A stretch of 57,102 nucleotides of DNA from a virus (taxonomy: Duplodnaviria; Caudoviricetes): positions 1 to 57,102 of the IMG/VR virus record IMGVR_UViG_3300014161_000001; one strand, 5' to 3'. Below are positions 7,140 through 44,262 of the stretch, in pieces. Within the stretch, counting starts at the first letter, position 1. Every line of letters starts with the position of its first letter. The notes under the pieces were generated by a model that saw only the letters and a list, made by a program, of their open reading frames with translations, had not been told where the DNA came from and did not search any database. The translations under genes and the position numbers were made by a program.

Positions 7140-9954
7140 GAGTCAGCTCTCGGCCAAGGCGCAGGCGTCTCTCGGCCTGCCCGAGGGGATCAAGTTCTAC
7201 TCGCCGTTTCCGTTCGGCGGGATGAACGTCCAGGCGTCTTCGGTGGCGGTCGCCGACAACGAGTTTCTGTGGCTGGAAAACTTCGTCCGCCTCGGCGACG
7301 GCAATCTGCGCACGGTGTGGGACAGGGGCGCCTCGATCTACATTGCGCCGGGCGGATTGACGATCGTCTGGCACGTCTTCTTCAATATCGGCGCTGCCTA
7401 TTACTGCGCTGTGTTCTTGTCAGACGGATCGGCGGTTCAGGTGAGTATGGCGACGCTCGCTCAGGCGCAGATCGGCCCGCCGGGCCTGTTCTACGACGCG
7501 TCGACAGGCTACCTCCCCTACGCGCGCCAATGGGGGACACAATATCTCCTCATCAGCAACCGCAACACGGTCAACGACTACTGGGCGTGGGACGGCTCTC
7601 TGCTCTACGGCGCCGGCACAGCGGCGCCGAATGGCGTCGATATCCTGTCGGGCGGCGGGGGCTACGGATCGGCGCCGACGCTGACGGTCTATGGTGGGTT
7701 CGGTTCGGGGATCGAGATCGTGCCGGTCGTCATCGGCGGCGAGGTCGTCGAGATGAACATCGCGAGTCCCGGCTTGGGCTACGAGCCCGGCGATATCGTG
7801 CAGGTGGCGTTCAGCGGCGGCGGCTCGGATTCCTCGGCGATCCTCCAGGCCTCGCTCGCGCCGACGACGGTCGGCGGCGTGACGGTCACCGCGCCGGGGT
7901 CCGGCTACACGTTCGCCAGCGTTTGGTTCACCGGCGGCGGGGGCGGTTCGGGCGTTGCGGCGACGGCGACGATCGTCGGCGGAGCGGTGACGTCGATCGT
8001 GCTGACGAGCGCTGGGTCGGGTTATACCACGGCGCCGTCGGTGCAGGTGTTCGGGAACGGCTCCGGCGCGTTGGCGACTGCGGCGCTGACGCCGTCGGGC
8101 GTCTCGGCGGGTAGCGTCGTCAGCACGACGGTCGCATCCATAACGGTCGTCGGGGGCGGGTCGGGTTACACGCAGGTCGGCGTCTCGATCGTCGGCGGCG
8201 GGGGGTCCGGCGCTACGGCGACGGCGACGCTGTCGAGCGGCTCGATCAGCGAGATCACGATGGAGACGGCCGGGTCCGGCTATATTTCGACGCCCTCGGT
8301 CGTCATCGCCGGCGACGGCGCCAATGCGTCGGCGACGGCGGTGCTGACGTCGAGCGCGACTGTGCCGGGCGTCGCCGTGGTTAACGGCGGCAGTAACTTC
8401 ACCAGCGTGCCGACGCTGACGATCACGGGCGGTGGGGGGTCCGGCGCTACGGCCATTGCGCTCCTCGCGGCGACGACCGTCGCCTCGATCAACCTGACGT
8501 CTGGCGGCTCGGGGTACACCTCGGCGCCGACGATATCGTTCACCGGCGGCGGCGGATCGGGCGCCGCGGCGACGGCCTATCTCAGCGGCGGCCAGGTCGC
8601 CTACGTCGTCGTCACCAGCGCCGGCAGCGGCTACACGTCGCCGATCCAGGTTACGTTCAGCGGCGGAGGCGGCTCGGGCGCCGGCGCTACGGTCGTCTAT
8701 GCGCCGACGTCGATCAACTCTGTCGAGGTGATGAGCGCGGGCCGGTACTACACCACGGCGCCGGCGGTCGAGGTGTCGTCGGGGGCGAACAACGCCGCCG
8801 CGGCGACGGTCATGCTGATGCCGTTTGGGGTCAGCGGCTCGGTGCTAGAGACGTTTCTGTCGCGGGCCTGGGTCTACGACCCGGCGCCGTCGCTCTACTC
8901 GACGCTGCCGCCGGGCGGCGACTGGGAAGTCTCGGCGCCGGGCTCCTTCGTCGACTTCGCGACCTCCGATGGCGCTGTCAGCGCCGTCAATACCGACGCC
9001 TTTCTCAACACGCAGTATACCCAGGCGCGACAGTCCTCGGGCTACCTCTACGCGCTCGGCGACGGGTCGATCAGCGTCATCTCCAACGTCAACTCGTCGA
9101 GCTCGTCGAGCTCGTCGGGCTCGTCGGTGTCGACGACGTTCAACTACCAGAACGTCGACCCGCAGATCGGCTGCGCGTGGCGGGACTCTCTCCAGGACTT
9201 CGGCCGGTCGACGATATTCGCCAACGCGACGGGCGTCTACGGGCTCTACGGCGGCGCGGCGACTAAGATCAGCGGCAAGCTCGATCAGCTCTTCGCCAGC
9301 GCGGCGTTCCCCCCGACGGCGGGAGCGGCGACGCCCGCCGCCGCGGTGGCGACGATCTACGGCGTCAAGCATTACCTCCTGCTGATGACGGTGACCGACC
9401 CCGACACCGGCGCTCTGCGCAACGTCATGGCGACGTGGAACGAGAAGGAGTGGTTCGTCACCTCGCAGAGCGTGTCTCTGGCGTTCATCTCGACGCAGAA
9501 GCAGGGCAGCGAGTACGCCGCCTACGGGACCGACGGGTCCTCGATCTACCCGCTGTTCTCGGCGCCGTCCTCGTCGCTGCAAAAGCGCCTCGACACCAAG
9601 ATGTACGGCTCGGACCGCATCTTCGTCGAGAAGGCGGCGCAGGGCGTCTGGTTTCAGGCGCAGGACAACTCCGCCGGCGCGGTCGGCGTCTCTGGGACGC
9701 TGGCGGCGGTCGTCTCGGGGATGGGCGGCGGCGCGATCAACGGCTACGCGATCACCGCGCCCGAGGGGGTTTCGGCGCCGTTTCTCAACCAGGTCGCGTT
9801 CGCCTCTCCGCCGCCGTTCTGGAACGTCTGGGGCACGGCGATGGAGGGGAACGGGTTCTTCTCGATCGGCCTGCGATTCGTCAGCAGCAGCCCGGATTTC
9901 ACTCTCGCCGATCTCGTGATAGGCTACACGGAGCACGTCGCGTTCTTCGCGTGA
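7126..9954 (+). CDS. Tail nozzle / tubular protein B-like with internal Gly-rich repeat insertion
   Basis: 942 aa; FPFGGMN..WLENF N-terminus, beta-rich C-terminus; about 9 GSGYTxxPxVxxxGGGGSGAxA repeats. Confidence 0.65.
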   Translation: MPDSRSQLSAKAQASLGLPEGIKFYSPFPFGGMNVQASSVAVADNEFLWLENFVRLGDGNLRTVWDRGASIYIAPGGLTIVWHVFFNIGAAYYCAVFLSDGSAVQVSMATLAQAQIGPPGLFYDASTGYLPYARQWGTQYLLISNRNTVNDYWAWDGSLLYGAGTAAPNGVDILSGGGGYGSAPTLTVYGGFGSGIEIVPVVIGGEVVEMNIASPGLGYEPGDIVQVAFSGGGSDSSAILQASLAPTTVGGVTVTAPGSGYTFASVWFTGGGGGSGVAATATIVGGAVTSIVLTSAGSGYTTAPSVQVFGNGSGALATAALTPSGVSAGSVVSTTVASITVVGGGSGYTQVGVSIVGGGGSGATATATLSSGSISEITMETAGSGYISTPSVVIAGDGANASATAVLTSSATVPGVAVVNGGSNFTSVPTLTITGGGGSGATAIALLAATTVASINLTSGGSGYTSAPTISFTGGGGSGAAATAYLSGGQVAYVVVTSAGSGYTSPIQVTFSGGGGSGAGATVVYAPTSINSVEVMSAGRYYTTAPAVEVSSGANNAAAATVMLMPFGVSGSVLETFLSRAWVYDPAPSLYSTLPPGGDWEVSAPGSFVDFATSDGAVSAVNTDAFLNTQYTQARQSSGYLYALGDGSISVISNVNSSSSSSSSGSSVSTTFNYQNVDPQIGCAWRDSLQDFGRSTIFANATGVYGLYGGAATKISGKLDQLFASAAFPPTAGAATPAAAVATIYGVKHYLLLMTVTDPDTGALRNVMATWNEKEWFVTSQSVSLAFISTQKQGSEYAAYGTDGSSIYPLFSAPSSSLQKRLDTKMYGSDRIFVEKAAQGVWFQAQDNSAGAVGVSGTLAAVVSGMGGGAINGYAITAPEGVSAPFLNQVAFASPPPFWNVWGTAMEGNGFFSIGLRFVSSSPDFTLADLVIGYTEHVAFFA

Positions 9955-19084: not shown

Positions 19085-19545
19085 CACGTCTCCTCCTCGC
19101 TCTCGCCCTCGTCGCCGGCGCGGCGCCGGCGCTGGCGCAGAGCGGCCCCGGCGCCAGCGGGCGCGATCCCTGCACCTATGCCGCCAAGTCGAGCGTGCCG
19201 ATCGACATCGCGGGACCAGGGACGATCGGTCTCGTCCCGCCGCTCGGGTCGGCGTCGATCTACGTCTGCGGGGTCAACGTCACGCTCAGCGCGGCGCCCT
19301 TCAACTCCGCGACTTTCGAATATGGAACCGGAGCGGCGTGCGCCAATCCGACCGCGCTGAGCGGCGATATCGGCTTTAGCAATCCGATCAGTTGGAGCAG
19401 CAACCCGCCGCAGTCCGCCACCTCGTTCTCCAGCGGCGCCGACTTCACGCTCTTCACGGCGCCGTCGGGAACCGGTCTGTGCGTGGTCACGACCGGCGGC
19501 GCGGCGGCGTTCGTCAGCGGGTTTCTGACCTATGTCCAGCAGTGA
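19081..19545 (+). CDS. Signal-peptide-bearing Cys-containing protein
   Basis: GTGA overlap; MTRLLLALALVAGAAPALA-Q. Confidence 0.7.
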   Translation: MTRLLLALALVAGAAPALAQSGPGASGRDPCTYAAKSSVPIDIAGPGTIGLVPPLGSASIYVCGVNVTLSAAPFNSATFEYGTGAACANPTALSGDIGFSNPISWSSNPPQSATSFSSGADFTLFTAPSGTGLCVVTTGGAAAFVSGFLTYVQQ

Positions 19546-35249: not shown

Positions 35250-35521
35250 TCAACGCCATCATCGTAACCAACCCCGGCACTGGCTACGCAGGCCCTCCCG
35301 GCGGCGATTTTCCCGAGCCGAAAGATCCGACTCGTGAAAAAAGTCAAGAAGAATGCCCTAAGCTCGGATCAATTTGGCAGGCTAAAAACGGGCTAACCGT
35401 AACACCGATCGGGCGGCAAGGAGGCTATGTCAATCTCAGCACAAGCGAAGGTCCTCGAATCTGGGCCTACGACGAATTTTGGACATGGGTTAACGGTGAC
35501 AAAGCGGAGATGGTCGGATGA
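35246..35521 (+). CDS. Low-GC hypothetical protein
   Basis: ATGA overlaps at both ends; AT-richer codons. Confidence 0.65.
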   Translation: MINAIIVTNPGTGYAGPPGGDFPEPKDPTREKSQEECPKLGSIWQAKNGLTVTPIGRQGGYVNLSTSEGPRIWAYDEFWTWVNGDKAEMVG

Positions 35522-36834
35522 GCGCGGCGCACCACACTCGCAGCCACGCTACTTGGGCCGCCTCGGCGACGACGCGCAACGTCACCTGCGCCGGCGCGGT
35601 CGCCATGGAGACGATGTGCGAGGACAAGGAGACTGAGGCTGCCGCGTGGGGAACCTGCGCACACCAGATCGCCGAACGCTGCCTACGGCAGAACATTGAC
35701 GCGTCAAGCTTCCTCGGTGAAACCGAAAAATCCGGCCGCTTCGAGTTCGTCATCGACGAGGAGATGGCGAACTGCTCGCAGGTCTACGTCGCCTACTGCC
35801 GCGATCGAATGGCGGAGTACCGAGCGGCAACCGGCCAAGAGGCGACGATGTGGGTCGAGCAGCAACTGTCGCTCGCCCCGCTCGATCCACCGCTCAAGGC
35901 CGGCGGCACCGGCGACTGCGGCATGCACTTTCCACTGTGGCGAATGCTGGAGGTTGTCGACCTCAAGGGCGGGCGCGGCGTCGTCGTCAAGGCCGCCGGC
36001 AACATGCAGGAGAGGACCTACGCGATCGGCTTCCTACTGTCGCTCGTCGGCATCTCGGTCGACACGATCCGCTCGACGATCGTCCAGCCGCGAGTCGGCG
36101 ATGGCAAGCCGACGTGGGAAGACGTCCACGTCGCCGACCTTCTCGACTGGACCGTCGACCTGCTGGCGGCGATGCGCCGCTCGAGACAGGCGTTGACTGA
36201 GTTCGAAGCGCTCGGCGGCAACCGCGTCAAGTTCGACGACTGGGCCGAGCGCTGGCTGACCGTCGGCGCGTGCGTGTTCTGCCCCGCCGAGGGCGTCTGC
36301 CCTAAGCGGCGCAAGGAGGCGCTGTCGATCATGAGCGACACGGCGCAGAGGTGGTTCGAGGAGCCGGCGGGCGACGCGCCGCTCGCGATCGGCAACGCGC
36401 CGGAGACCGCCTCGCCGGAGGAACTGGCGCGCTGGCTCGACGGCCTCGAAGCGCTGGAGAGCTGGATCAAGAGCCTGCGCGCCTACGCGCATGCCGCCGC
36501 CGAGCGCGGCGTCGCCATCCCCGGCTGGATAATCGTCGACAAGATCGGGAACCGGCGGTGGACCGACGAGACGCAAGCCGCGCTCGCGCTGCGCAACACG
36601 CTCGGCCTCAGCAAGGAGCAAGCGTTCGAGGAGAAGCTGCGTTCTCCCGCGCAGATCGAGAAGATTCTCGGCGCCAAGCGGAAAGCCGAGATCGAGCCGC
36701 TGGTCAGCCGCCCCGCCACTGGAACGAACCTGGTCTCCGCAGCCAAGACCAGCCGATCGGCGGCAAAGAGCCTCGCCGAGCAGCACAACGATAGACTGGA
36801 GCATGCCTATCCGGTTAACGCCCAACGGAGCTAG
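35518..36834 (+). CDS. DUF2800 / Cas4-like PD-(D/E)XK exonuclease (C-terminus altered by cassette 1)
   Basis: GTCAH, VEQ, GTGD, VDLKGGRG, IVQPR, CVFC..C, RSPAQIEK. Confidence 0.85.
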   Translation: MSAAHHTRSHATWAASATTRNVTCAGAVAMETMCEDKETEAAAWGTCAHQIAERCLRQNIDASSFLGETEKSGRFEFVIDEEMANCSQVYVAYCRDRMAEYRAATGQEATMWVEQQLSLAPLDPPLKAGGTGDCGMHFPLWRMLEVVDLKGGRGVVVKAAGNMQERTYAIGFLLSLVGISVDTIRSTIVQPRVGDGKPTWEDVHVADLLDWTVDLLAAMRRSRQALTEFEALGGNRVKFDDWAERWLTVGACVFCPAEGVCPKRRKEALSIMSDTAQRWFEEPAGDAPLAIGNAPETASPEELARWLDGLEALESWIKSLRAYAHAAAERGVAIPGWIIVDKIGNRRWTDETQAALALRNTLGLSKEQAFEEKLRSPAQIEKILGAKRKAEIEPLVSRPATGTNLVSAAKTSRSAAKSLAEQHNDRLEHAYPVNAQRS

Positions 36835-37181
36835 ATCATGAACCGCTACTCGAATGAAGCCGTCGAGCGATTTGACCAGCAATTCGCCGAGACAAGCGAT
36901 GAGCGCGCTGAGAGATTCGCGCGACGTCAAATCGACCCGCTATTTCAGCAGCTTTTCGACTTGACGCGCAATTGGAATTCCTTCGAAGATGTCCCACGAT
37001 CCCAACAGATCGAATGCCGCCAGATTGGCGAGAAGCTTCATGCTGACGGCGGAATTGAGAAGATGCGATCGGCCTATTACGCGGCCAAGGAACGCAATCT
37101 GCACGTCCACGTCATCCAAGCCTATTGGGACAAGGTAGGAGACTGGAGATGGTAAGTCCGGGTGAAAACCGGATAGGCATA
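36802..37181 (+). mobile_element. Non-autonomous mobile gene cassette 1 (380 bp)
   Basis: Left end CATGCCTATCCGGTTAACGCCC, right end GGGTGAAAACCGGATAGGCATA; flanking 8-bp direct repeat GACTGGAG (36794-36801, 37182-37189); ends shared with cassette 2. Confidence 0.9.
36838..37155 (+). CDS. Cassette 1 passenger, hypothetical 105-aa protein
   Basis: Lower GC; uses cassette-supplied GGAG; C-terminal RQIGEKL..GG..M..WDKVGDW. Confidence 0.8.
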   Translation: MNRYSNEAVERFDQQFAETSDERAERFARRQIDPLFQQLFDLTRNWNSFEDVPRSQQIECRQIGEKLHADGGIEKMRSAYYAAKERNLHVHVIQAYWDKVGDWRW

Positions 37182-37198
37182 GACTGGAGAACTGAGAA

Positions 37199-37843
37199 AT
37201 GGTAAAGACCCGAAGTCTCGACTTCAAGACCCCGCTCTGCCGATTGAGCTACGCGCAATCGCTGTTCAAGGCGCGCGCCCAGGAAGAAGGCAAGGAGCCG
37301 AAGTTCGGCTGCACGTTGATCTTCGAGAAGAGACACCGCGCTGAACTAGAGAAACACGTCGCCGAAACGATCGTCGCCGAATGGGGGCCGAAGGGCCTCG
37401 AAAAAGCAAAGGCCGGCCTGATCAAGTCGCCGTTCCTGGCGGGCGACGGCAAGGAGTCGCGCAACAAGCAGAACGGCGACCTTCATCCCGGCATGGGGCC
37501 GGATGTTTTCTTCATCCGGCCCTCGGCCAACAAGGACCGCCCGCCGGCGGTGTGGTGGAAAGACCCGAACAAGCAGGAAGATGAGACGACTATCTACTCC
37601 GGCTGCTACGGCAAGGCGGTGCTCAACTGCTTCGCTTGGCACAACGAGAAGTCGGGCGACGGCGTCAGCTTCGGTATTCAGGGCTTCCAGAAACACACCG
37701 AGGGCGAGCGGCTAGGCGGCGGGGGGCCGATCGACAAGGAGAAGTGGTCCGAGACGATCGCCGACGACGGCCCGGCGCCGGACTCGACTAAGGGCGGAAA
37801 AGGCGCCGGCGGCCTGTTCGGCGAGGATGATATCTCCTTCTGA
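37199..37843 (+). CDS. DUF2815-type single-stranded DNA-binding protein
   Basis: RLSYA..PKF..L, GDG, YSGCYG, GVSFG.Q..GERLGG, acidic tail. Confidence 0.9.
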   Translation: MVKTRSLDFKTPLCRLSYAQSLFKARAQEEGKEPKFGCTLIFEKRHRAELEKHVAETIVAEWGPKGLEKAKAGLIKSPFLAGDGKESRNKQNGDLHPGMGPDVFFIRPSANKDRPPAVWWKDPNKQEDETTIYSGCYGKAVLNCFAWHNEKSGDGVSFGIQGFQKHTEGERLGGGGPIDKEKWSETIADDGPAPDSTKGGKGAGGLFGEDDISF

Positions 37844-37858
37844 TATCTAAAGGAGGCG

Positions 37859-37948
37859 ATGCGCTCTGCCGCCGCAACCAAATTATTTGACGTAGGGCCG
37901 CCGCGGCGCACAGCGCTGCGGCGGCCGCGATCCGAGAGAGCGAGATGA
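37859..37948 (+). CDS. 29-aa Arg-rich ORF containing a GC hairpin
   Basis: AAGGAGG RBS; ATGA overlap with next gene. Confidence 0.4.
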   Translation: MRSAAATKLFDVGPPRRTALRRPRSERAR

Positions 37949-38145
37949 GCGAAGAGACGATCGCGCTGCCGCTGCGCGTGCGACGCGACGAGCCGACCGA
38001 CCAGGCGATCCTGGCGATGCGCGACGACGGCGCGCAGGTGTGGCTGCCGCGCAGCCTGATCGAAATCGAGTATCTGGACCAAAATCACCGGATCGCCGAG
38101 GTGACGACGCCCGAGTGGCTGGCGACCGACAAGGAGCTGATCTAA
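37945..38145 (+). CDS. Hypothetical small phage protein
   Basis: AIL..VWLPRSLIE..PEWLA..K family pattern. Confidence 0.75.
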   Translation: MSEETIALPLRVRRDEPTDQAILAMRDDGAQVWLPRSLIEIEYLDQNHRIAEVTTPEWLATDKELI

Positions 38146-38414
38146 TGCCGAGACAACCCGAAGCGCCGAAGATCGGCGACAACAGCGTCAACGGCGCCCA
38201 CTTGCGCGCCTTCGTCGAGCGCGTCGAGAGGCTCGAGGAGGACAAGAAGGCGCTCAGCGACGACATCAAGGGCGTCTACGCCGAGGCCAAGGGCAACGGC
38301 TTCGACGCCAAGCAGATGCGCGCCGTCATCAGGATCAGGTGGCAGGACCGCGACAAGCGGCGCGAGGAGCAGGAGGTGCTCGACATGCACCTCGCCGCCC
38401 TGGGGCTGCTGTGA
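38145..38414 (+). CDS. DUF2312 / GapR-like nucleoid-associated protein
   Basis: LRAFVERVERLEEDKK..DIK.VYAEAKGNGFD.K..R consensus. Confidence 0.9.
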   Translation: MPRQPEAPKIGDNSVNGAHLRAFVERVERLEEDKKALSDDIKGVYAEAKGNGFDAKQMRAVIRIRWQDRDKRREEQEVLDMHLAALGLL

Positions 38415-38641
38415 CCGTTCTGCCGCGCTGGACCCCCGAGGAGGACGCCGAGCTGCTGCGCCACGTCGACGCGACATGGCCCGCCGGCGGGTTCCACGCG
38501 ACGCTGAGAATACCGGCGAGCCGCGTGGCGGCTCGCATGAGCAAGAAGTTCGGCCGGAAGATCACCAAGAGCGCCGTCATCGCGCGGCTGCGGCGGATGC
38601 GGCCGACGAGGAGCCAAGATGGACGAGATCAACAGCTTTAA
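38411..38641 (+). CDS. GcrA N-terminal-like HTH protein
   Basis: WTPEE..L..W..G..ASRVA..ITKSAVI..RR pattern. Confidence 0.6.
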   Translation: MTVLPRWTPEEDAELLRHVDATWPAGGFHATLRIPASRVAARMSKKFGRKITKSAVIARLRRMRPTRSQDGRDQQL

Positions 38642-38855
38642 TGAGGTCTTCGCTGTCGCCAGGGAGCGCGATCTCTACCTCGACTCGCTCTACCAGGACC
38701 GCGAGGGCCAGTTCGTCGCCGCGTGGCGCGCCGGTGCGCGCATCCCCGGCGAGCGCCGCGGCGCGCCGACGCGACGTCTCCACCCATTCAACGCGACGCG
38801 CGACGCGCTGCTGACGCTGCTCGACGAGGCGCCAGAAGAGGACCTATTCGCATGA
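38619..38855 (+). CDS. Hypothetical protein
   Basis: GAGGAG RBS; ends EEDLFA; ATGA overlap. Confidence 0.65.
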   Translation: MDEINSFNEVFAVARERDLYLDSLYQDREGQFVAAWRAGARIPGERRGAPTRRLHPFNATRDALLTLLDEAPEEDLFA

Positions 38856-39178
38856 AACTCGCGATCCTGGAGAGCCCCTACGCCGGCGACCTGAAGCAGA
38901 ACCTCGCCTACGCTCGCGCGGCGATCCGTCACAGCTTGTCGCGCGGCGAGGCGCCGCTCGCCAGTCACTTGCTCTACGCCGCCAGCGGCGCGCTGGACGA
39001 CGACATCGCCGAGCAACGCGCGCTGGGGATCGCCGCCGGCCAGGCGTGGCTCGCCGCGGTCGAGACGGTCGTGGTCTACGCCGACCTGGGGATCTCGCCG
39101 GGGATGCGCGCTGGGATCGAGGCGGCGAAGGCGCTAGGCAAGCCAGTAGTCTACCGCACAATCGGCTGGCCGCCGTGA
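38852..39178 (+). CDS. Phage protein with nucleoside deoxyribosyltransferase-like fold (ESPYAG family)
   Basis: ILESPYAGD..NLAYARA..GEAPLASHLLY..DLGISPGM. Confidence 0.7.
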   Translation: MKLAILESPYAGDLKQNLAYARAAIRHSLSRGEAPLASHLLYAASGALDDDIAEQRALGIAAGQAWLAAVETVVVYADLGISPGMRAGIEAAKALGKPVVYRTIGWPP

Positions 39179-39420
39179 GCACGCGCGTCTACCGCTACGT
39201 GCGCGGCGGCGAGACCCGCTTCGTCCCATATCGACCGCGCCTGACGATCGCCGATGACGACCTGGAGGCGCTCCGCCTCGCGCACCCCGGCTCGACCGGA
39301 CGACCGAGAAAAGGCGACACGCGCGGCGGTCTGAGGACGATCGCCGCGATCCTCGGCTGCTCGCCGACCGCGGTAAAGAAGCGGCTGCGCAGAATCGCCG
39401 AACGAGAAGAGGGTGTATGA
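39175..39420 (+). CDS. Small HTH protein
   Basis: LRTIAAILGCSPTAVKKRL. Confidence 0.7.
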   Translation: MSTRVYRYVRGGETRFVPYRPRLTIADDDLEALRLAHPGSTGRPRKGDTRGGLRTIAAILGCSPTAVKKRLRRIAEREEGV

Positions 39421-39422
39421 TT

Positions 39423-40141
39423 CATGCCTATCCGGTTAACGCCCAACGGAGCTAGATGATGATGACTGAATATCACAAAATTGAAACGCTTTTTGAGCGC
39501 GACGCTTCAACCTTCGTCGTTGATCCAACGAAGCTGAAAATGTCAGTCTTTGGCACTATCAGCGAATGGGATGTGACTGAGAAAATTGATGGCACAAACA
39601 TCCGGGTCATGCTTTCGAAAGACGGCGCCGTGTCCTTTGGCGGCCGCACCAACACGGCGTCAATTCCTGGAGACCTCGTCCAATATCTCGTTCGCACATT
39701 TCAGCAGGACTTACTCAAGTCCGCGTTATGGCTCAGCGTCGCTGAGCCTGTCGATGCCGTTCTTTACGGCGAAGGCTACGGCCCAGGCATTCAAAAGAGC
39801 GGCGCCCTTTACCGGGATGACAAAGCGTTCATCCTCTTCGATGTGCTAATCAATGGCCAGTGGTGGCTTGATAGAATGGCAATCACCGAGATTGCGGCTA
39901 AGCTCGGCATCGACGCAGTGCCCTACCTCGGTCGTATGACGCTTAAACAAATCGTCGAACTTGTGCAGGCTCCTTTTTCATCCAAGATCGGTCGGGCTGT
40001 AGCCGAAGGCGTCGTCGCTCGACCCATTGAGACGCTGTTCGATAAGCGGATGAAGAGAATCATCATCAAACTCAAGACGAAGGATTTCGTTGCAGGCAGA
40101 CGCTAGGAGTAGCGGCAATGGGTGAAAACCGGATAGGCATG
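39423..40141 (+). mobile_element. Non-autonomous mobile gene cassette 2 (719 bp)
   Basis: Same 35-bp left end and 21-bp right end as cassette 1; flanking 8-bp direct repeat GTATGATT (39415-39422, 40142-40149). Confidence 0.9.
39456..40106 (+). CDS. Cassette 2 passenger, RNA ligase-family (Rnl2-like) nucleotidyltransferase
   Basis: YHKI, EKIDGTN (motif I), LYGEGYG, FILFDV, EGVVARP, IKLK; lower GC. Confidence 0.85.
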   Translation: MMMTEYHKIETLFERDASTFVVDPTKLKMSVFGTISEWDVTEKIDGTNIRVMLSKDGAVSFGGRTNTASIPGDLVQYLVRTFQQDLLKSALWLSVAEPVDAVLYGEGYGPGIQKSGALYRDDKAFILFDVLINGQWWLDRMAITEIAAKLGIDAVPYLGRMTLKQIVELVQAPFSSKIGRAVAEGVVARPIETLFDKRMKRIIIKLKTKDFVAGRR

Positions 40142-40143
40142 GT

Positions 40144-42396
40144 ATGATTGAGTGCCACTGCGACTTCGAGACGCGCAGCGACATCGACATCAAGACGCGC
40201 GGCTCCTACATCTACTTCGAGTCGTCGCTGACCGAGCCGCTCTGCGCCTCGTTCAAGTTCACCGGCGCGCACTACGTTTACCGCTGGTTGCCGAGCGAGC
40301 CGTGCCCGCCGATGATCGTGCGGCACGCGCAGATGAGCGGGCGCTTCGTCGCCCACAACGCCGGCTCATTCGAGGCGATGCTGTGGGAGACGGTCCTCGT
40401 TCCCCGCTACGGCTGGCCACGAATCGGCCTCGACCAGTGGCGCTGCACGATGGCTGCGGCCTCGGCGCTCGGCCTGCCGGCGAGCCTGGAGAAGCTCGGC
40501 GAGGCGCTCGACCTCAACGCCAAGAAGGACAAGGCCGGCAAGTCGCTGATCGTCTTCTTCTGCTCGCCGAGACGGCTTCGAAGCGGCGAGGCAGGAATCC
40601 GCTTCAACGAGCCCGCCGACTATCCGGAAAAATTCGAGCAGTTTCGCGCCTACTGCGACGACGACGTGCGCGCCGAGTCGGAGGCCGACGCGCGGATGAT
40701 CCCGCTCAGCGACGACGAGCTCGCGGTGTGGCGACTATCGGAGGCGATCAACCGCCGCGGCGTCCGCGTCGACACGGTCTCGGCTCGCGCCGCGCTGCGG
40801 TTGATCGAGCAGGAGAAGCTGCGGCTCGACGCCGAGATAACCGCGGCGACCGGCAGCGCCGTCACCGCCTGCAGCCAGGCGGCGCGACTGACAGCATGGC
40901 TCGCCTCGCAAGGCGTCGCGATGGAGGGGGTCGCCAAGGACGACGTCCTGGAGGCGTTCGAGCTCGACGACCTGCCGAAGCACGTCCGAAAAGCGCTGGA
41001 GATCCGCCAGCAAGCCGCCAAACCGTCGATCAACAAGCTGAAGGCCTTCCTCGCCCACGTCTGCGCCGACGATCGCGTGCGCGGAACCTTCGTCTACCAC
41101 GGGACCGGGCCGGGTCGGTGGACCTCGGCCGGCGGCGTCAACTTCTACAACATGCCGCGGCCGCGCCCGGCCTTCGACGACGCCGACCTCGACCCAGCAA
41201 CGCTGTTCGCCGCTTTTCGCAGCGAAGAGCCGGCGATCTTGCGAGCGCTCTACGGCGACGATCTTGGCAAACCGACGCACCTCGTCTCCGACGCTATCCG
41301 CAGTTTTCTGATCGCGGCGCCGGGCAAAGACTTCATCGCCGTCGACTACTCGGGTATTCAGGGCGCCCTCTGCGCTTGGTACGCCGACGAGAAGTGGAAA
41401 TTGCAGGCGATGCGCGAGATCATCGCCGACCCGCGCCTACCGGACCTATACCGCCGCACCGCCGCCAGTATCCTGAACACGACGACTGAGGTCGTCACCA
41501 AGAAGCACTGGGGGCGGCAGATCGGCAAGGTCGCCGAGCTCGCGCTGGGCTTCCAGGGTTCGGTGGCGGCGCTCGTCTCGATGGCGGCGAACTACGACAT
41601 GTTGCGCCGCAACCTCCACGACCTCTACCCCGGCGTCTGGGGCGCGGCCGACGAGGCGGCGCGCGAGCGCGCGATTAAACGCTGGGAGCAGCGGATGAAA
41701 AGCCGCGACCGGCAAAAGACCGACATCCTGACGCGCGAGGCGTGGCTCGCTTGCATGATCGTCGTCAACGCGTGGCGTCGGCACAACGCCGAGATCAAGG
41801 CGTCGTGGAGCGAACTTGAAGACGCGGCGCGACGAGCGCTGCGCGAACCGGGTGTCAAGCAGCGCGCGCTCGACCGGATCGACTACCTCTATAAGAGCGG
41901 TTTCCTGTGGTGCCGACTGCCGAGCGGCCGTCCGATCGCCTACGCCAAGCCGCGCCTGCGCGACCAAGCGTGGGCGAAGCTGCGACTCGTCGACGGCTCG
42001 TGGGGTGAAGCCGAGGTCATCGACCGCGACGAAGCCGAGAAGCTGGCGCTCGCCGACAAGGCGCAGATCCAGGGCGCAACTTCGCCGAAGGTAACGGCGC
42101 TCGGCTACGACTCGACGACCAAGAAGATGCTGCGCTACGGCCTCTACGGCGGATTGTTGATGGAAAACAATTGCTTGGGGGCGGAAGCCGATGTTTTACG
42201 AGTAGCTATGCGAAAATGCGAAGACGCCGGCTACCCGATCGTCCTCCACATCTACGACGAGGCGGTCGCCGAGGTCCCACGCGGTTTCGGCTCGGTCGAG
42301 GAGATGAAGAGCCTGATGCTCGACCTGCCTGTCTGGACAAGAGGCCTGCCTCTGACGGCGCACGGCTACCGCGCCAAGCGCTATGCGAAAAAGTGA
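40144..42396 (+). CDS. Family A DNA polymerase with 3'-5' exonuclease
   Basis: DFETRS, AHNA.F, YC.DDV exonuclease motifs; GRW, DYSGIQ, RQIGKVAELALGF, HIYDE polymerase motifs. Confidence 0.92.
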   Translation: MIECHCDFETRSDIDIKTRGSYIYFESSLTEPLCASFKFTGAHYVYRWLPSEPCPPMIVRHAQMSGRFVAHNAGSFEAMLWETVLVPRYGWPRIGLDQWRCTMAAASALGLPASLEKLGEALDLNAKKDKAGKSLIVFFCSPRRLRSGEAGIRFNEPADYPEKFEQFRAYCDDDVRAESEADARMIPLSDDELAVWRLSEAINRRGVRVDTVSARAALRLIEQEKLRLDAEITAATGSAVTACSQAARLTAWLASQGVAMEGVAKDDVLEAFELDDLPKHVRKALEIRQQAAKPSINKLKAFLAHVCADDRVRGTFVYHGTGPGRWTSAGGVNFYNMPRPRPAFDDADLDPATLFAAFRSEEPAILRALYGDDLGKPTHLVSDAIRSFLIAAPGKDFIAVDYSGIQGALCAWYADEKWKLQAMREIIADPRLPDLYRRTAASILNTTTEVVTKKHWGRQIGKVAELALGFQGSVAALVSMAANYDMLRRNLHDLYPGVWGAADEAARERAIKRWEQRMKSRDRQKTDILTREAWLACMIVVNAWRRHNAEIKASWSELEDAARRALREPGVKQRALDRIDYLYKSGFLWCRLPSGRPIAYAKPRLRDQAWAKLRLVDGSWGEAEVIDRDEAEKLALADKAQIQGATSPKVTALGYDSTTKKMLRYGLYGGLLMENNCLGAEADVLRVAMRKCEDAGYPIVLHIYDEAVAEVPRGFGSVEEMKSLMLDLPVWTRGLPLTAHGYRAKRYAKK

Positions 42397-43014: not shown

Positions 43015-44262
43015 ATGATCACGTCACTCACCGCCGAGCAGCGAAGTAGACTCCCTGAATTCGTCAAGAAATGGACGGCGATAGGACTCTCCACAGAGCC
43101 CGCCGACCGTTCGCGCGCCGAAAAAGCTATACTCGGTCTCTACCGCCTCGCAAAACTGAGAGAACCACGCATAATCTGGCTTCCGTGCCCAATCAGCGCA
43201 GCGCTAAGCACGATCGTCTACGCAAAAATTATTTCTTATGCACAAATTGCTAAACAACAAGCCGTCGGCTCGGCCGTCGATTTGGCCATCGACTCGGCCA
43301 TCGATTTGGCCGTCAGCTCGGCCGTCGGCTCGGCCGTCGGCTCGGCCATCGACTCGGCCGTCGATTTGGCCATCGACTCGGCCATCGATTTGGCCGTCGA
43401 CTCGGCCATCGATTTGGCCGTCAACTCGGCCGTCGGCTCGGCCATCGACTCGGCCGTCGGCTCGGCCGTCGGCTCGGCCATCGACTCGGCCGTCGATTTG
43501 GCCGTCAGCTCGGCCGTCGGCTCGGCCGTCGGCTCGGCCATCGGCTCGGCCGTCGATTTGGCCGCCAGCTCGGCCATCGATTTGGCCGTCAACTCGGCCG
43601 TCGGCTCGGCCGTCGGCTCGGCCGGAAATGCTTTCTTCGGCGGCTCGCTCTGGAACGCCGGGTACAGCGCCTGGGTAGACTTCTTCAACGAGGCCTGCGA
43701 CGCTGCAATCGACCGCAGTTTTATCGAGATAACTGCGAGCGCCGGATTCTGCTGGCCCCTGGACGGCGTCTGCTTCGCGTCGGATCGACCCGCAGAGATC
43801 CACCTCGACCACGCCGGACGACTGCACCGCGACGACGCGCCGGCGATCGTCTACCGAGAGACAGGCTGGGGTCTGTACTGCTGGCACGGCTATCGCGTTC
43901 CGGACGACCGCGCCTGGATCATCGCCGACAAGACCCGCATCACCGCCGAGGCGATCCTGAGAGAACCGAACGCCGAGATCCGACGCATCATGTGCGAGAT
44001 CACGGCGTTCGAACCGATCCGCAGGCTGGCGAAGACGGTGAGCGCGGACATGGACGGAAACGGCCAGCCGCGCCGCTTGCTGCGCGCGAGAGTAGGCGAC
44101 GAGGACATCCGCATCGTCGAGGTCGTCAACGGCTCGACCGAGCCCGACGGCTCGCGGCGCAAATTCCTGCTCGGGGCCATGCCAGGAAGAACGCCGCACG
44201 AGGCGATCGCGGCGAGCTATGGGATCAGCCCGAGACACTACCGCGAGGCGGTGCGCACGTAG
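43015..44262 (+). CDS. DUF6745-like protein with tetrapeptide repeat tract
   Basis: W..IGLSTEPADR..AE, SDRP..D..GRLH...PAI.Y..GW..Y.WHG, I..E.NAEIRR, V.NGSTEPDGS.R.F. Confidence 0.8.
   Translation: MITSLTAEQRSRLPEFVKKWTAIGLSTEPADRSRAEKAILGLYRLAKLREPRIIWLPCPISAALSTIVYAKIISYAQIAKQQAVGSAVDLAIDSAIDLAVSSAVGSAVGSAIDSAVDLAIDSAIDLAVDSAIDLAVNSAVGSAIDSAVGSAVGSAIDSAVDLAVSSAVGSAVGSAIGSAVDLAASSAIDLAVNSAVGSAVGSAGNAFFGGSLWNAGYSAWVDFFNEACDAAIDRSFIEITASAGFCWPLDGVCFASDRPAEIHLDHAGRLHRDDAPAIVYRETGWGLYCWHGYRVPDDRAWIIADKTRITAEAILREPNAEIRRIMCEITAFEPIRRLAKTVSADMDGNGQPRRLLRARVGDEDIRIVEVVNGSTEPDGSRRKFLLGAMPGRTPHEAIAASYGISPRHYREAVRT
43261..43624 (+). repeat. 12-bp-period coding tandem repeat (about 30 units)
   Basis: Units T(C/T)GGCC(G/A)TC-(GGC/GAC/GAT/AGC/AAC) encoding SAVG, SAID, LAID, LAVN. 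Confidence 0.95.

Follow-up and report, generated by a model that had tools for sequence, protein, structure and literature searches.

The locus analyzed here raises the question of how two unrelated genes in one phage genome came to be enclosed by the same short sequences. The window, a stretch of 57,102 nucleotides from a virus of the Caudoviricetes (IMG/VR record IMGVR_UViG_3300014161_000001), contains two cassettes, at 36802–37181 and 39423–40141, each with a single ORF. The cassettes share a 35-bp left end (36802–36836 and 39423–39457) and a 21-bp right end (37160–37180 and 40120–40140), each is bordered by an 8-bp direct repeat of its own, and their GC contents are 0.54 and 0.52 compared to 0.65 and 0.68 in the flanks. 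An initial annotation of the sequence had described these shared ends and repeats, and they were confirmed at the positions it gave.

Cassette 1 lies between two copies of the target duplication gactggag (36794–36801 and 37182–37189). Its left end (IRL, plus strand) is composed of a 15-bp terminal core, followed by GGAG and then TAG, and passenger 1, a helical protein of 105 aa, is encoded on the plus strand at 36838–37155. The right end (IRR, minus strand) occupies 37160–37181. Comparison with other family members showed that the terminus lies one base further out (...GGCATG) than the 21-bp right end of the initial annotation. This outermost base is mismatched in cassette 1, which therefore spans 36802–37181, with one mismatch in its right terminal core (37167–37181). 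The insertion point falls in the last codons of the upstream DUF2800 gene (35518–36834, plus strand); these codons were replaced by the cassette, and the gene now stops at the TAG within the left end.

Cassette 2 is flanked by the duplication gtatgatt (39415–39422 and 40142–40149) and was inserted at an ATGA stop/start overlap. The upstream gene ends at a TGA within the left copy of the duplication, and the right copy contains the ATG (40144) of the downstream DNA polymerase gene (40144–42396, plus strand), whose start codon is thus kept by the duplication. The left end (39423–39457, plus strand) leads into passenger 2, an RNA-ligase-family protein of 216 aa (39456–40106, plus strand), and the right end (40120–40141, minus strand) has a terminal core without mismatches (40127–40141). 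An ATG at offset +36 was said to be common to both cassettes, and it is present in both; in cassette 2, however, it is the second ATG, the first being at +33. The passenger stops lie 4 nt (cassette 1) and 13 nt (cassette 2) ahead of the 21-bp right end, as the ORF positions confirm, and the ORF map supports the earlier description of the element as two ends and one tightly fitted ORF.

With up to three mismatches allowed, the 15-bp terminal core occurs five times in the window, compared to 0.71 expected, and a count of five or more was reached in none of 100 shuffles. Four of the five matches are the cassette ends. The remaining match, at 19326 with three mismatches, is probably due to chance. 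Nothing was found to favor an origin of the repeats by chance matching or by faulty assembly, and the shuffles make it extremely improbable, as do the presence of the same structures in many independent contigs and the coverage of both cassettes and their junction regions by contigs from three runs in three studies (one of which, X1, may be the source sample).

The family of the ends was identified from elements that carry a transposase between them. The 15-bp terminus in the window is identical to that of bacterial elements of 1.07–1.19 kb, which encode transposases with PF12762 and PF12760 domains (NF033547). In each of the three full-length elements scanned, the transposase belongs to the IS1595 family and shows no match to an IS4-family model. 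The nearest named relative is ISAcr1, an element of 1080 bp from an Acidiphilium plasmid with the 8-bp duplication atatattg, whose termini match those of the window at 14 of 15 bases and whose transposase is labeled in RefSeq as 'IS1595-like element ISAcr1 family transposase'. The end motif may fit the ISSod11 subgroup of IS1595. The affinity to the IS4 family and IS231 suggested in the initial annotation was rejected on the basis of the IS1595-family transposases found between such ends; IS231 generates duplications of 10–12 bp, compared to 8 bp here.

As described in PMC8101967, the IS1595 family is defined by an 8-bp duplication and a single transposase with Zn-ribbon and DDE_Tnp_IS1595 domains. 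Both cassettes have the family-type inverted repeats and the 8-bp duplication but lack the single PF12760 and PF12762 transposase. The earlier statement that no transposase or integrase is encoded was borne out for the cassettes, while for the whole window it extends to the one family searched, PF12762, which had no match at E ≤ 1. As no IS1595 transposase was found in the cassettes or the window, the cassettes are IS1595 derivatives and not ISs themselves. They resemble ISAcr1 and other IS1595 members in their termini (14/15), in the 8-bp duplication and in the Zn-ribbon and DDE_Tnp_IS1595 domains of the transposase that lies between such ends elsewhere, and they differ in carrying an unrelated ORF in place of the transposase. 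Phage-associated autonomous forms differ from ISAcr1 and its kin in another way, by the addition of one to five ORFs upstream of the transposase.

The empty-site relatives proposed as a check in the initial annotation were found. Five syntenic relatives (L005, L245, L246, L248, and L249) all lack element ends at both cassette sites. Site 1 is a precise, single-copy empty site in all five, reading aactggagaactga once in L246, and site 2 is likewise precise and single-copy in L005, L245, and L246, the three in which the junction was read. Based on the duplications and the empty sites, each window cassette was inserted as a unit. The initial annotation also holds in reading the inverted repeats and fixed-length 8-bp duplications as a signature of DDE transposition.

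One of these relatives, L005, encodes a 345-aa IS1595 transposase, 69% identical to that of ISAcr1, that directly adjoins an end (7626–7660) identical over 35 bp to both window left ends; at the right end, the identity extends over 31 bp. Together with the bacterial copies of 1.07–1.19 kb, L005 provides what the initial annotation had proposed to look for, an autonomous form whose transposase is bounded by these ends. The composite element in L005 lacks a target duplication, which points to spread of some copies by recombination or to later rearrangement, and it takes the place of 364 bp present in the window. This composite, along with the 20 of 76 viral pairs that have no duplication among the matches listed, would fit an exchange between phages in which the shared ends serve as sites of homologous or site-specific recombination and not of transposition, resembling the promoter-stem-loop cassettes of T4-like phages. 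However, recombination would not make new 8-bp duplications, which both window sites have and which are present with varied sequence in 56 of the 76 viral pairs among the matches listed. The empty sites are also precise and the ends belong to an IS with a DDE transposase, leaving recombination a very improbable origin for the cassettes.

Transposition is thus the preferred reading, and it is highly likely that the cassettes are non-autonomous derivatives (MICs) of an ISAcr1-like member of IS1595, inserted by a DDE transposase. A MIC, as the category is presented in PMC3129680, has IS inverted repeats around one or more passenger genes and no transposase, and passenger-carrying ISs are also established there. 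MIC231 from the Bacillus cereus group, with IS231 ends, is given as the first MIC described, and other examples reported include Tn3-family MICs in Xanthomonas and a qnrS2 MIC in Aeromonas (PMC4337579, PMC5444012). Both window cassettes have IS inverted repeats around an unrelated passenger, no transposase, and a target duplication, and mobilization in trans is presumed as it is for MICs. They differ in having IS1595 ends in place of IS4 or Tn3 ends, in being carried by phage genomes, and in a cargo that is typically one ORF filling the inter-end space, whereas bacterial copies of the family are empty MITEs. The analogy with MICs drawn in the initial annotation therefore holds. Its claim of an undescribed system was too strong, as the IS family to which the ends belong has been described and both MICs and passenger-carrying ISs are established; a match of this kind had been named beforehand as removing novelty, and it was found in part. 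As MICs of an IS family already described, the window cassettes are a known kind of element.

In the proposed mechanism, a cassette would comprise the two terminal inverted repeats of the element around one complete foreign ORF, and a DDE transposase making 8-bp staggered cuts would insert each cassette. The transposase would be supplied from elsewhere, either by a co-infecting phage with an autonomous form, as in L005, or by an IS copy in the host chromosome. Mobilization in trans is suggested circumstantially by the cognate transposase adjoining identical ends in L005 and by the presence of one cassette type at two unrelated sites: the cassettes of L028 and L114 share 81% identity over 455 bp, with flanks about 20% identical and duplications that differ. 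The left end would provide stops for incoming reading frames, GGAG, and a start codon about 34–40 nt from the terminus, so that the passenger would probably be translated from the transcript of the phage operon itself. An SD-like 4-mer was present ahead of the cargo start in 26 of 41 cassettes, and stops in all three frames in only 12 of the 41. A crude strand call gave 41 elements co-oriented with the phage genes, 19 in the opposite orientation, 20 ambiguous, and two with uncallable flanks.

To survey the ends elsewhere, as the initial annotation had also proposed, loci were seeded either by the 15-bp terminus or by the transposase, and all counts in this census are among the matches listed. 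In viral loci, terminus seeding identified at least 76 distinct paired elements, of which 54 have a perfect 8-bp duplication and two a duplication with one mismatch; in bacterial loci there were at least 40, of which 23 have a perfect duplication and one a duplication with one mismatch. Among complete elements seeded by the transposase, extra genes were present in 66 of 69 on viral contigs and in four of 67 on bacterial contigs, and the phage-borne autonomous layout was IRL-cargo-transposase-IRR. Transposase-less copies had one ORF filling the inter-end space in viral contigs and were empty MITEs in bacteria. The terminus-seeded set, with no plain IS among 76 viral elements, had suggested that phage copies always carry cargo; transposase seeding identified three plain viral copies, all of one 1150-bp IS with ends two bases off the terminus seed, and 'always' was reduced to 'nearly always'. 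As judged from these sequences, almost all copies of this IS1595 element family in phages seem to bring extra genes along, and few of those in bacteria do. This habitat contrast is the part that looks new, and no published description of it, or of passenger-carrying IS1595-type cassettes in phages, was found in the literature searched.

The fit between ends and cargo recurs across the census. In 41 of 50 viral transposase-less elements with a duplication, among the matches listed, an ORF covered at least 60% of the element and had its start no more than 60 nt from one end. In a count of 51 elements of this kind, which included one from bacteria, the offset of the ORF start peaked at 34 (nine elements) and 37 (five elements), and the distance from cargo stop to terminus was 13 nt in seven elements, 29 in five, 5 in four, and 16 in three. 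These distances bear on a further possibility, in which the cassettes arrived as autonomous elements, lost the transposase by deletion in place, were never mobilized in trans, and are now dead. Removal of the transposase from the phage-borne autonomous layout would indeed leave IRL-cargo-IRR, and the same cargo was found at two unrelated sites in only one pair of 62 compared. However, independent random deletions would not give the recurrent short stop-to-terminus distances, the window cassettes contain no transposase remnant, and a transposase fragment is present in just one of the 76 terminus-seeded viral elements among the matches listed. One genome also holds a pair of cassettes whose ends are identical and whose cargo is unrelated. 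Deletion in place is thus unlikely, and the insertion of cassettes already lacking a transposase remains the preferred explanation.

The cargo of the viral elements includes DNA methyltransferases, Mom-like and PAPS-reductase-like proteins, nucleoside deoxyribosyltransferase, RNA ligase, MazG, and many small unknown proteins. Passenger 1 of the window had no match among Pfam, NCBIfam, or PHROG families. Eight proteins, none of them named, were found among 5.8 billion, including the window's own sequence, and one partial viral relative was found. The AF2 model of passenger 1 has a pLDDT of 72.8, and in a Foldseek search its best PDB match had an E value of 2.6; 72 matches were listed, none reaching E ≤ 0.001. 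Passenger 2 contains the adenylyltransferase domain PF09414 (E 8e-20) with a KxDG motif and matches the T4 Rnl2 structures 1s68 and 2hvq (E about 2e-6). Six homologues in other viral contigs lack element ends. Six resident RNA-ligase genes match cassette 2 at the nucleotide level from position 26–46 to position 665–684, where the ORF spans 34–684. Judged by these alignments, the RNA-ligase passenger is ORF-precise cargo that matches ordinary phage genes over the whole ORF, start to stop, and single ORFs may be captured in this way.

We compared the cassettes with two further kinds of known element. Transporter ISs (tIS), which carry passengers in addition to a transposase, were reportedly described for IS1595-family subgroups by Siguier et al. 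in 2009. The phage-borne autonomous copies share this arrangement in their IRL-cargo-transposase-IRR layout, with the difference that the form is near-universal in viral contigs (66/69) and rare in bacterial contigs (4/67) among the matches listed. Phage morons are accessory genes located between phage genes, each with a promoter and terminator of its own. The cassettes are similar in that each places one accessory gene, foreign in base composition, between core phage genes. A scan of the cassettes showed no promoter-like site (0 sites compared to 0.7 expected in a sigma-70-like scan, which covers one promoter type) and no excess of terminator-like sites (2 compared to 3.6 expected, neither bordering a cassette). 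The cassettes differ from morons in having inverted repeats and duplications, which make a defined insertion mechanism evident.

Among 50,697 GenBank phage records, the element end had no match and the transposase had only two distant matches (about 25% identity), making these elements invisible in isolated phages. The same ends around other interiors occur in metagenome runs that hold this phage. No contig bridging either empty site was found in four such runs, in which contigs break at the repeated ends and cannot show rare variants.

Illegitimate or homologous recombination is for the most part held responsible for the gain and exchange of small accessory genes by phages. The elements described here offer a defined and testable route, in which the ends of a DDE transposon enclose single ORFs and deliver them to gene boundaries, leaving the flanking genes unbroken. 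The habitat contrast suggests either that selection on compact genomes keeps only the copies that pay or that a phage-adapted lineage exists. It is possible, although we put it forward only tentatively, that an ISAcr1-like phage lineage acts as a shuttle for accessory genes, with a translational adaptor in the left end, through which any ORF inserted into a phage operon would be expressed, and start-to-stop ORF capture, and that its largely counter-defense cargo is passed by transposition from one phage to another, unrelated one when both infect the same cell. The ends also provide a sequence handle with which genes that are mobile, and for that reason probably beneficial, but lack a known function can be sought in uncultured phages; passenger 1 is an example.

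The region at 36794-40149 read in the sequence as the initial annotation had described it, with shared ends, inverted repeats and 8-bp flanking repeats. The record is complete (57,102 bp, with direct terminal repeats), and in it a 35-base left end (plus strand, starting at 36802 and 39423) and a 21-base right end (starting at 37160 and 40120) are each identical in the two cassettes, the outer 15 bases of left and right ends being inverted copies. On either side of each cassette stands an 8-bp direct repeat, different for the two, and each cassette holds one ORF, of 105 residues in cassette 1 and 216 in cassette 2. The shared 21 bp of the right end stood, and comparison with other family members placed the real terminus one base further out; since the mismatch falls at that added outermost base, cassette 1 spans 36802-37181 (cassette 2, 39423-40141). 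Where 0.71 occurrences were expected in the window, the 15-bp core (up to 3 mismatches) had five, a count reached in none of 100 shuffles, and four of the five matches were cassette ends. The passengers had been noted as low-GC genes, and the GC content of both cassettes lies 11-16 points below that of their flanks. All three incoming frames are closed in the left end before the passenger start codon. Around the cassettes no promoter-like sites were found and terminator-like sites were not in excess. A search of the window for IS1595 transposase domains, the only transposase or integrase family searched there, found none.

Empty-site relatives, which the initial annotation had proposed to look for, were found in five syntenic phages (L005, L245, L246, L248 and L249) with roughly 65-85% identity to the window phage. 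None of the five carries element ends at either cassette site, and their junctions, read at site 1 in all five and at site 2 in three (L005, L245 and L246), have the duplicated octamers in single copy. The site 1 sequence in L246 is aactggagaactga; in the window the order is gactggag, cassette 1, then gactggagaactga, and the cassette displaced the final codons of a DUF2800 gene, so that a TAG within the left end now terminates it. At site 2 the relatives run straight into the polymerase start codon. The target of cassette 2 is an ATGA stop/start overlap, and its duplication leaves the upstream stop intact as well as the ATG of the polymerase.

The 15-bp core was present in over 119 viral stretches and over 120 bacterial ones, although lone matches are weak proof because about a thousand are expected by chance for a 15-mer in 596 Gb; a 19-base pattern version, for which few chance matches are expected, was found in 88 viral stretches. 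Ends with at most two mismatches lying within 6 kb of each other were then paired. Among the matches listed, 123 viral sources including the window gave 76 distinct pairs, 54 with a perfect 8-bp duplication and 2 with one mismatch, the total being slightly inflated as at least two pairs are one element seen in both orientations. The 120 bacterial loci among the matches listed gave 40 distinct pairs, 23 with a perfect duplication and 1 with one mismatch. The ends thus recur elsewhere with further passengers and duplications, as had been sought.

The autonomous form was identified as well, as bacterial copies of 1.07-1.19 kb, each encoding one protein of 326-380 residues between the same ends. 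All three copies scanned showed IS1595 zinc-ribbon and DDE domains far above curated cut-offs, and the same three matched the NCBIfam IS1595 transposase model. The closest named plasmid relative is ISAcr1 on Acidiphilium cryptum pACRY02 (1080 bp, 14 of 15 terminal bases matching, 8-bp duplication), with 69% amino acid identity to the transposase of the related phage L005. A passage in PMC8101967 describes the IS1595 family by 8-bp duplications, one transposase gene and zinc-ribbon and DDE domains. The IS4/IS231 affinity first suggested for the ends was therefore wrong and was dropped, because the three full-length copies with the same ends encode IS1595 transposases and ISAcr1 is the nearest named relative.

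What sets the phage elements apart is their cargo. Among the matches listed, 75 of the 76 viral pairs carried cargo (62 without a transposase, 13 with a transposase and extra DNA), against 2 of the 40 bacterial pairs, the others being 13 plain ISs, 21 MITE-like copies (103-214 bp) and 4 transposase fragments. As this census was seeded by the ends, the pattern was re-tested with samples seeded by a transposase alignment built from 24 of 26 references (one with a stop codon and one other were dropped), taking the best 80 loci by score in viruses and bacteria alike. Of the 79 viral loci, 66 combined a transposase with extra DNA (47 with a perfect 8-bp duplication), 3 were plain ISs and 10 incomplete; the 80 bacterial loci comprised 4 with extra DNA (L376, L382, L405 and L420), 63 plain ISs (47 with a duplication, at most one mismatch) and 13 incomplete. 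Fisher's test of 66/3 against 4/63 gave p ~1e-29, in lists where several bacterial loci share genomes and some viral loci are one element in related contigs. The three viral plain ISs, the only ones in this best-80 sample, are a single 1150-bp IS1595 element at three sites with three different 8-bp duplications in three viral records (L330, L331 and L333; also seen in L271-L273), and its ends differ from those of the window at two bases. The viral extra DNA consists of 1-5 small, close-packed, co-directional ORFs, mostly between the left end and the transposase; three elements of 1699-1701 bp (L300, L301 and L306) share one ORF layout at three different duplications. On the transposase tree the phage label required 2 changes, where shuffling gave a mean of 8.6 and none of 500 shuffles was that low; as the tree has no root and related sequences carry the same label, this is weak evidence that phage-borne transposases cluster.

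Single-ORF packaging was widespread among the viral transposase-less elements. Of the 50 with a duplication among the matches listed, 41 had an ORF that began no more than 60 nt from one end and occupied 60% or more of the element. In a count over 51 such elements (50 viral, 1 bacterial), the commonest start offsets were +34 (in 9) and +37 (in 5), and stops lay 5-60 nt from the far terminus with recurring values of 13, 29, 5 and 16 nt, which recur because the right end itself provides stop codons. All three incoming frames were closed before the start in 12 of the 41 cassettes and two frames in 23, and a Shine-Dalgarno-like 4-mer preceded the called start in 26. By a crude strand call, cargo was co-oriented in 13 cases and anti-oriented in none where both flank calls agreed; per flank, the same call gave 41 co, 19 anti, 20 ambiguous and 2 uncallable. 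Target preference was weak and roughly palindromic (G-W-W-N-R-A-A-C).

A composite element in L005, located elsewhere than the two sites of the window, comprises in order a variant left end, a 196-residue ORF, a 345-residue IS1595 transposase, an internal end with 35 bp identical to the window's left end, two small ORFs and a right end with 31 bp identical to that of the window. It appears rearranged, because it has no duplication and 364 bp are replaced relative to the window. A cognate transposase therefore circulates in this phage group, although what moved the window's cassettes does not follow from it. The internal end breaks the last ~10 transposase codons, and the octamer gaatggac from the last codons forms its left flank (within L005 5985-8219). 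A 3978-bp element in L120 (3228-7205) has this same octamer as its duplicated target, which points to the 3' end of the transposase gene as a probable favoured insertion site, from which nested elements would arise. Tandem elements separated by exactly 8 bp, equal to the flanking duplication, were seen in L231 (784-1183) and L044 (5310-8837), and one metagenome contig in run X2 joins 40144 to 39425 as right end, 7 other letters and left end. Such arrangements could represent repeated insertion into a regenerated target, or the end-to-end junction of a transposition intermediate.

Three public wetland-metagenome runs from three studies, one of which may be the source sample, contain contigs covering the cassettes and junction regions. 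Contigs break at the repeated ends, so that none of those listed runs through the entire stretch, and depth goes up over the end sequences. Within the communities that hold the phage, one contig each in X2 and X3 carries a cargo-less mini-element at depth 8.6-11.8, made of the first 23 left-end bases, 20-21 other letters and the right end (joints 36824 to 40119 and 36824 to 37160), and one contig has the same ends around another interior. No contig bridging an empty site was listed, nor could these contigs be expected to reveal one. One cassette type was found at two unrelated sites (L028 and L114). Separately, window positions 38181-38317, within a gene annotated DUF2312 in the phage PBC5 record, showed depth several-fold above the rest in all four metagenome runs (90 against ~15 in X1), and this conserved segment is common to many other genomes of these communities. 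The window also has a long, GC-rich 12-bp tandem repeat array at 43201-43708 (a 172-nt unit in 29 register copies spaced 12 nt apart), which probably encodes a short peptide repeat, and several repeat families (D5, D7, D11 and D16) at ~117-nt spacing at 7860-8780, which suggests a protein with tandem repeated domains.

MITEs, MICs (mobile insertion cassettes) and transporter ISs are established categories in PMC3129680, where the source given for IS1595 is Siguier et al. 2009 and that for MIC231 is De Palmenaer et al. 2004. The MIC analogy drawn earlier was right, since IS-family ends surround a passenger and no IS1595 transposase; as MICs of a described family, with IS1595-type ends, the cassettes are of a known kind. 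The label of an undescribed system was too strong for them; what looks new is the wider phage pattern. Literature searches, with ISfinder and Siguier et al. 2009 outside their scope, found no description of IS1595-family presence in phages and, in the same scope without ISfinder, none of near-universal phage cargo versus plain ISs and empty MITEs in bacteria, or of start-to-stop single-ORF packaging. Among 50,697 GenBank phage records the end sequence was absent and the transposase had only 2 distant matches (~25% identity).

Finally, the passengers bear on capture and function. Passenger 2 belongs to an RNA-ligase family (PF09414, E 8e-20) and distantly matches T4 Rnl2 structures, and six viral contigs carry homologues at 64-77% amino acid identity with no element ends nearby. 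Nucleotide similarity with these resident genes begins at cassette position 26-46 and stops at 665-684, the ORF being 34-684, and the proteins start and finish at the same residues, so that cassette 2 contains a single complete gene and next to nothing besides. For one of the resident genes (L261, ~2480-2510) the native ribosome-binding region resembles the inner left end (window 39445-39470), the likeness being GGAG, 1-2 bases and TAGATGATG; from this single sequence comparison, microhomology may have operated at the capture junction. Pfam matches among 39 distinct single-ORF cassette proteins included N6/N4 DNA methylase (3), C5 methylase, Mom, RNA ligase, SpoU methylase, a PAPS-reductase domain, MazG, nucleoside deoxyribosyltransferase, DHHA1, prokaryotic E2 and HTH, and PHROG matches were mostly to DNA methyltransferase families. 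Only ~10 of the 99 ORFs accompanying transposases matched Pfam families (methylases, an XcyI-type restriction endonuclease, deoxyribosyltransferases, an antitoxin-type domain and others), most of the 99 being small proteins without assigned function. It is plausible that much of the cargo has a putative role in counter-defence.
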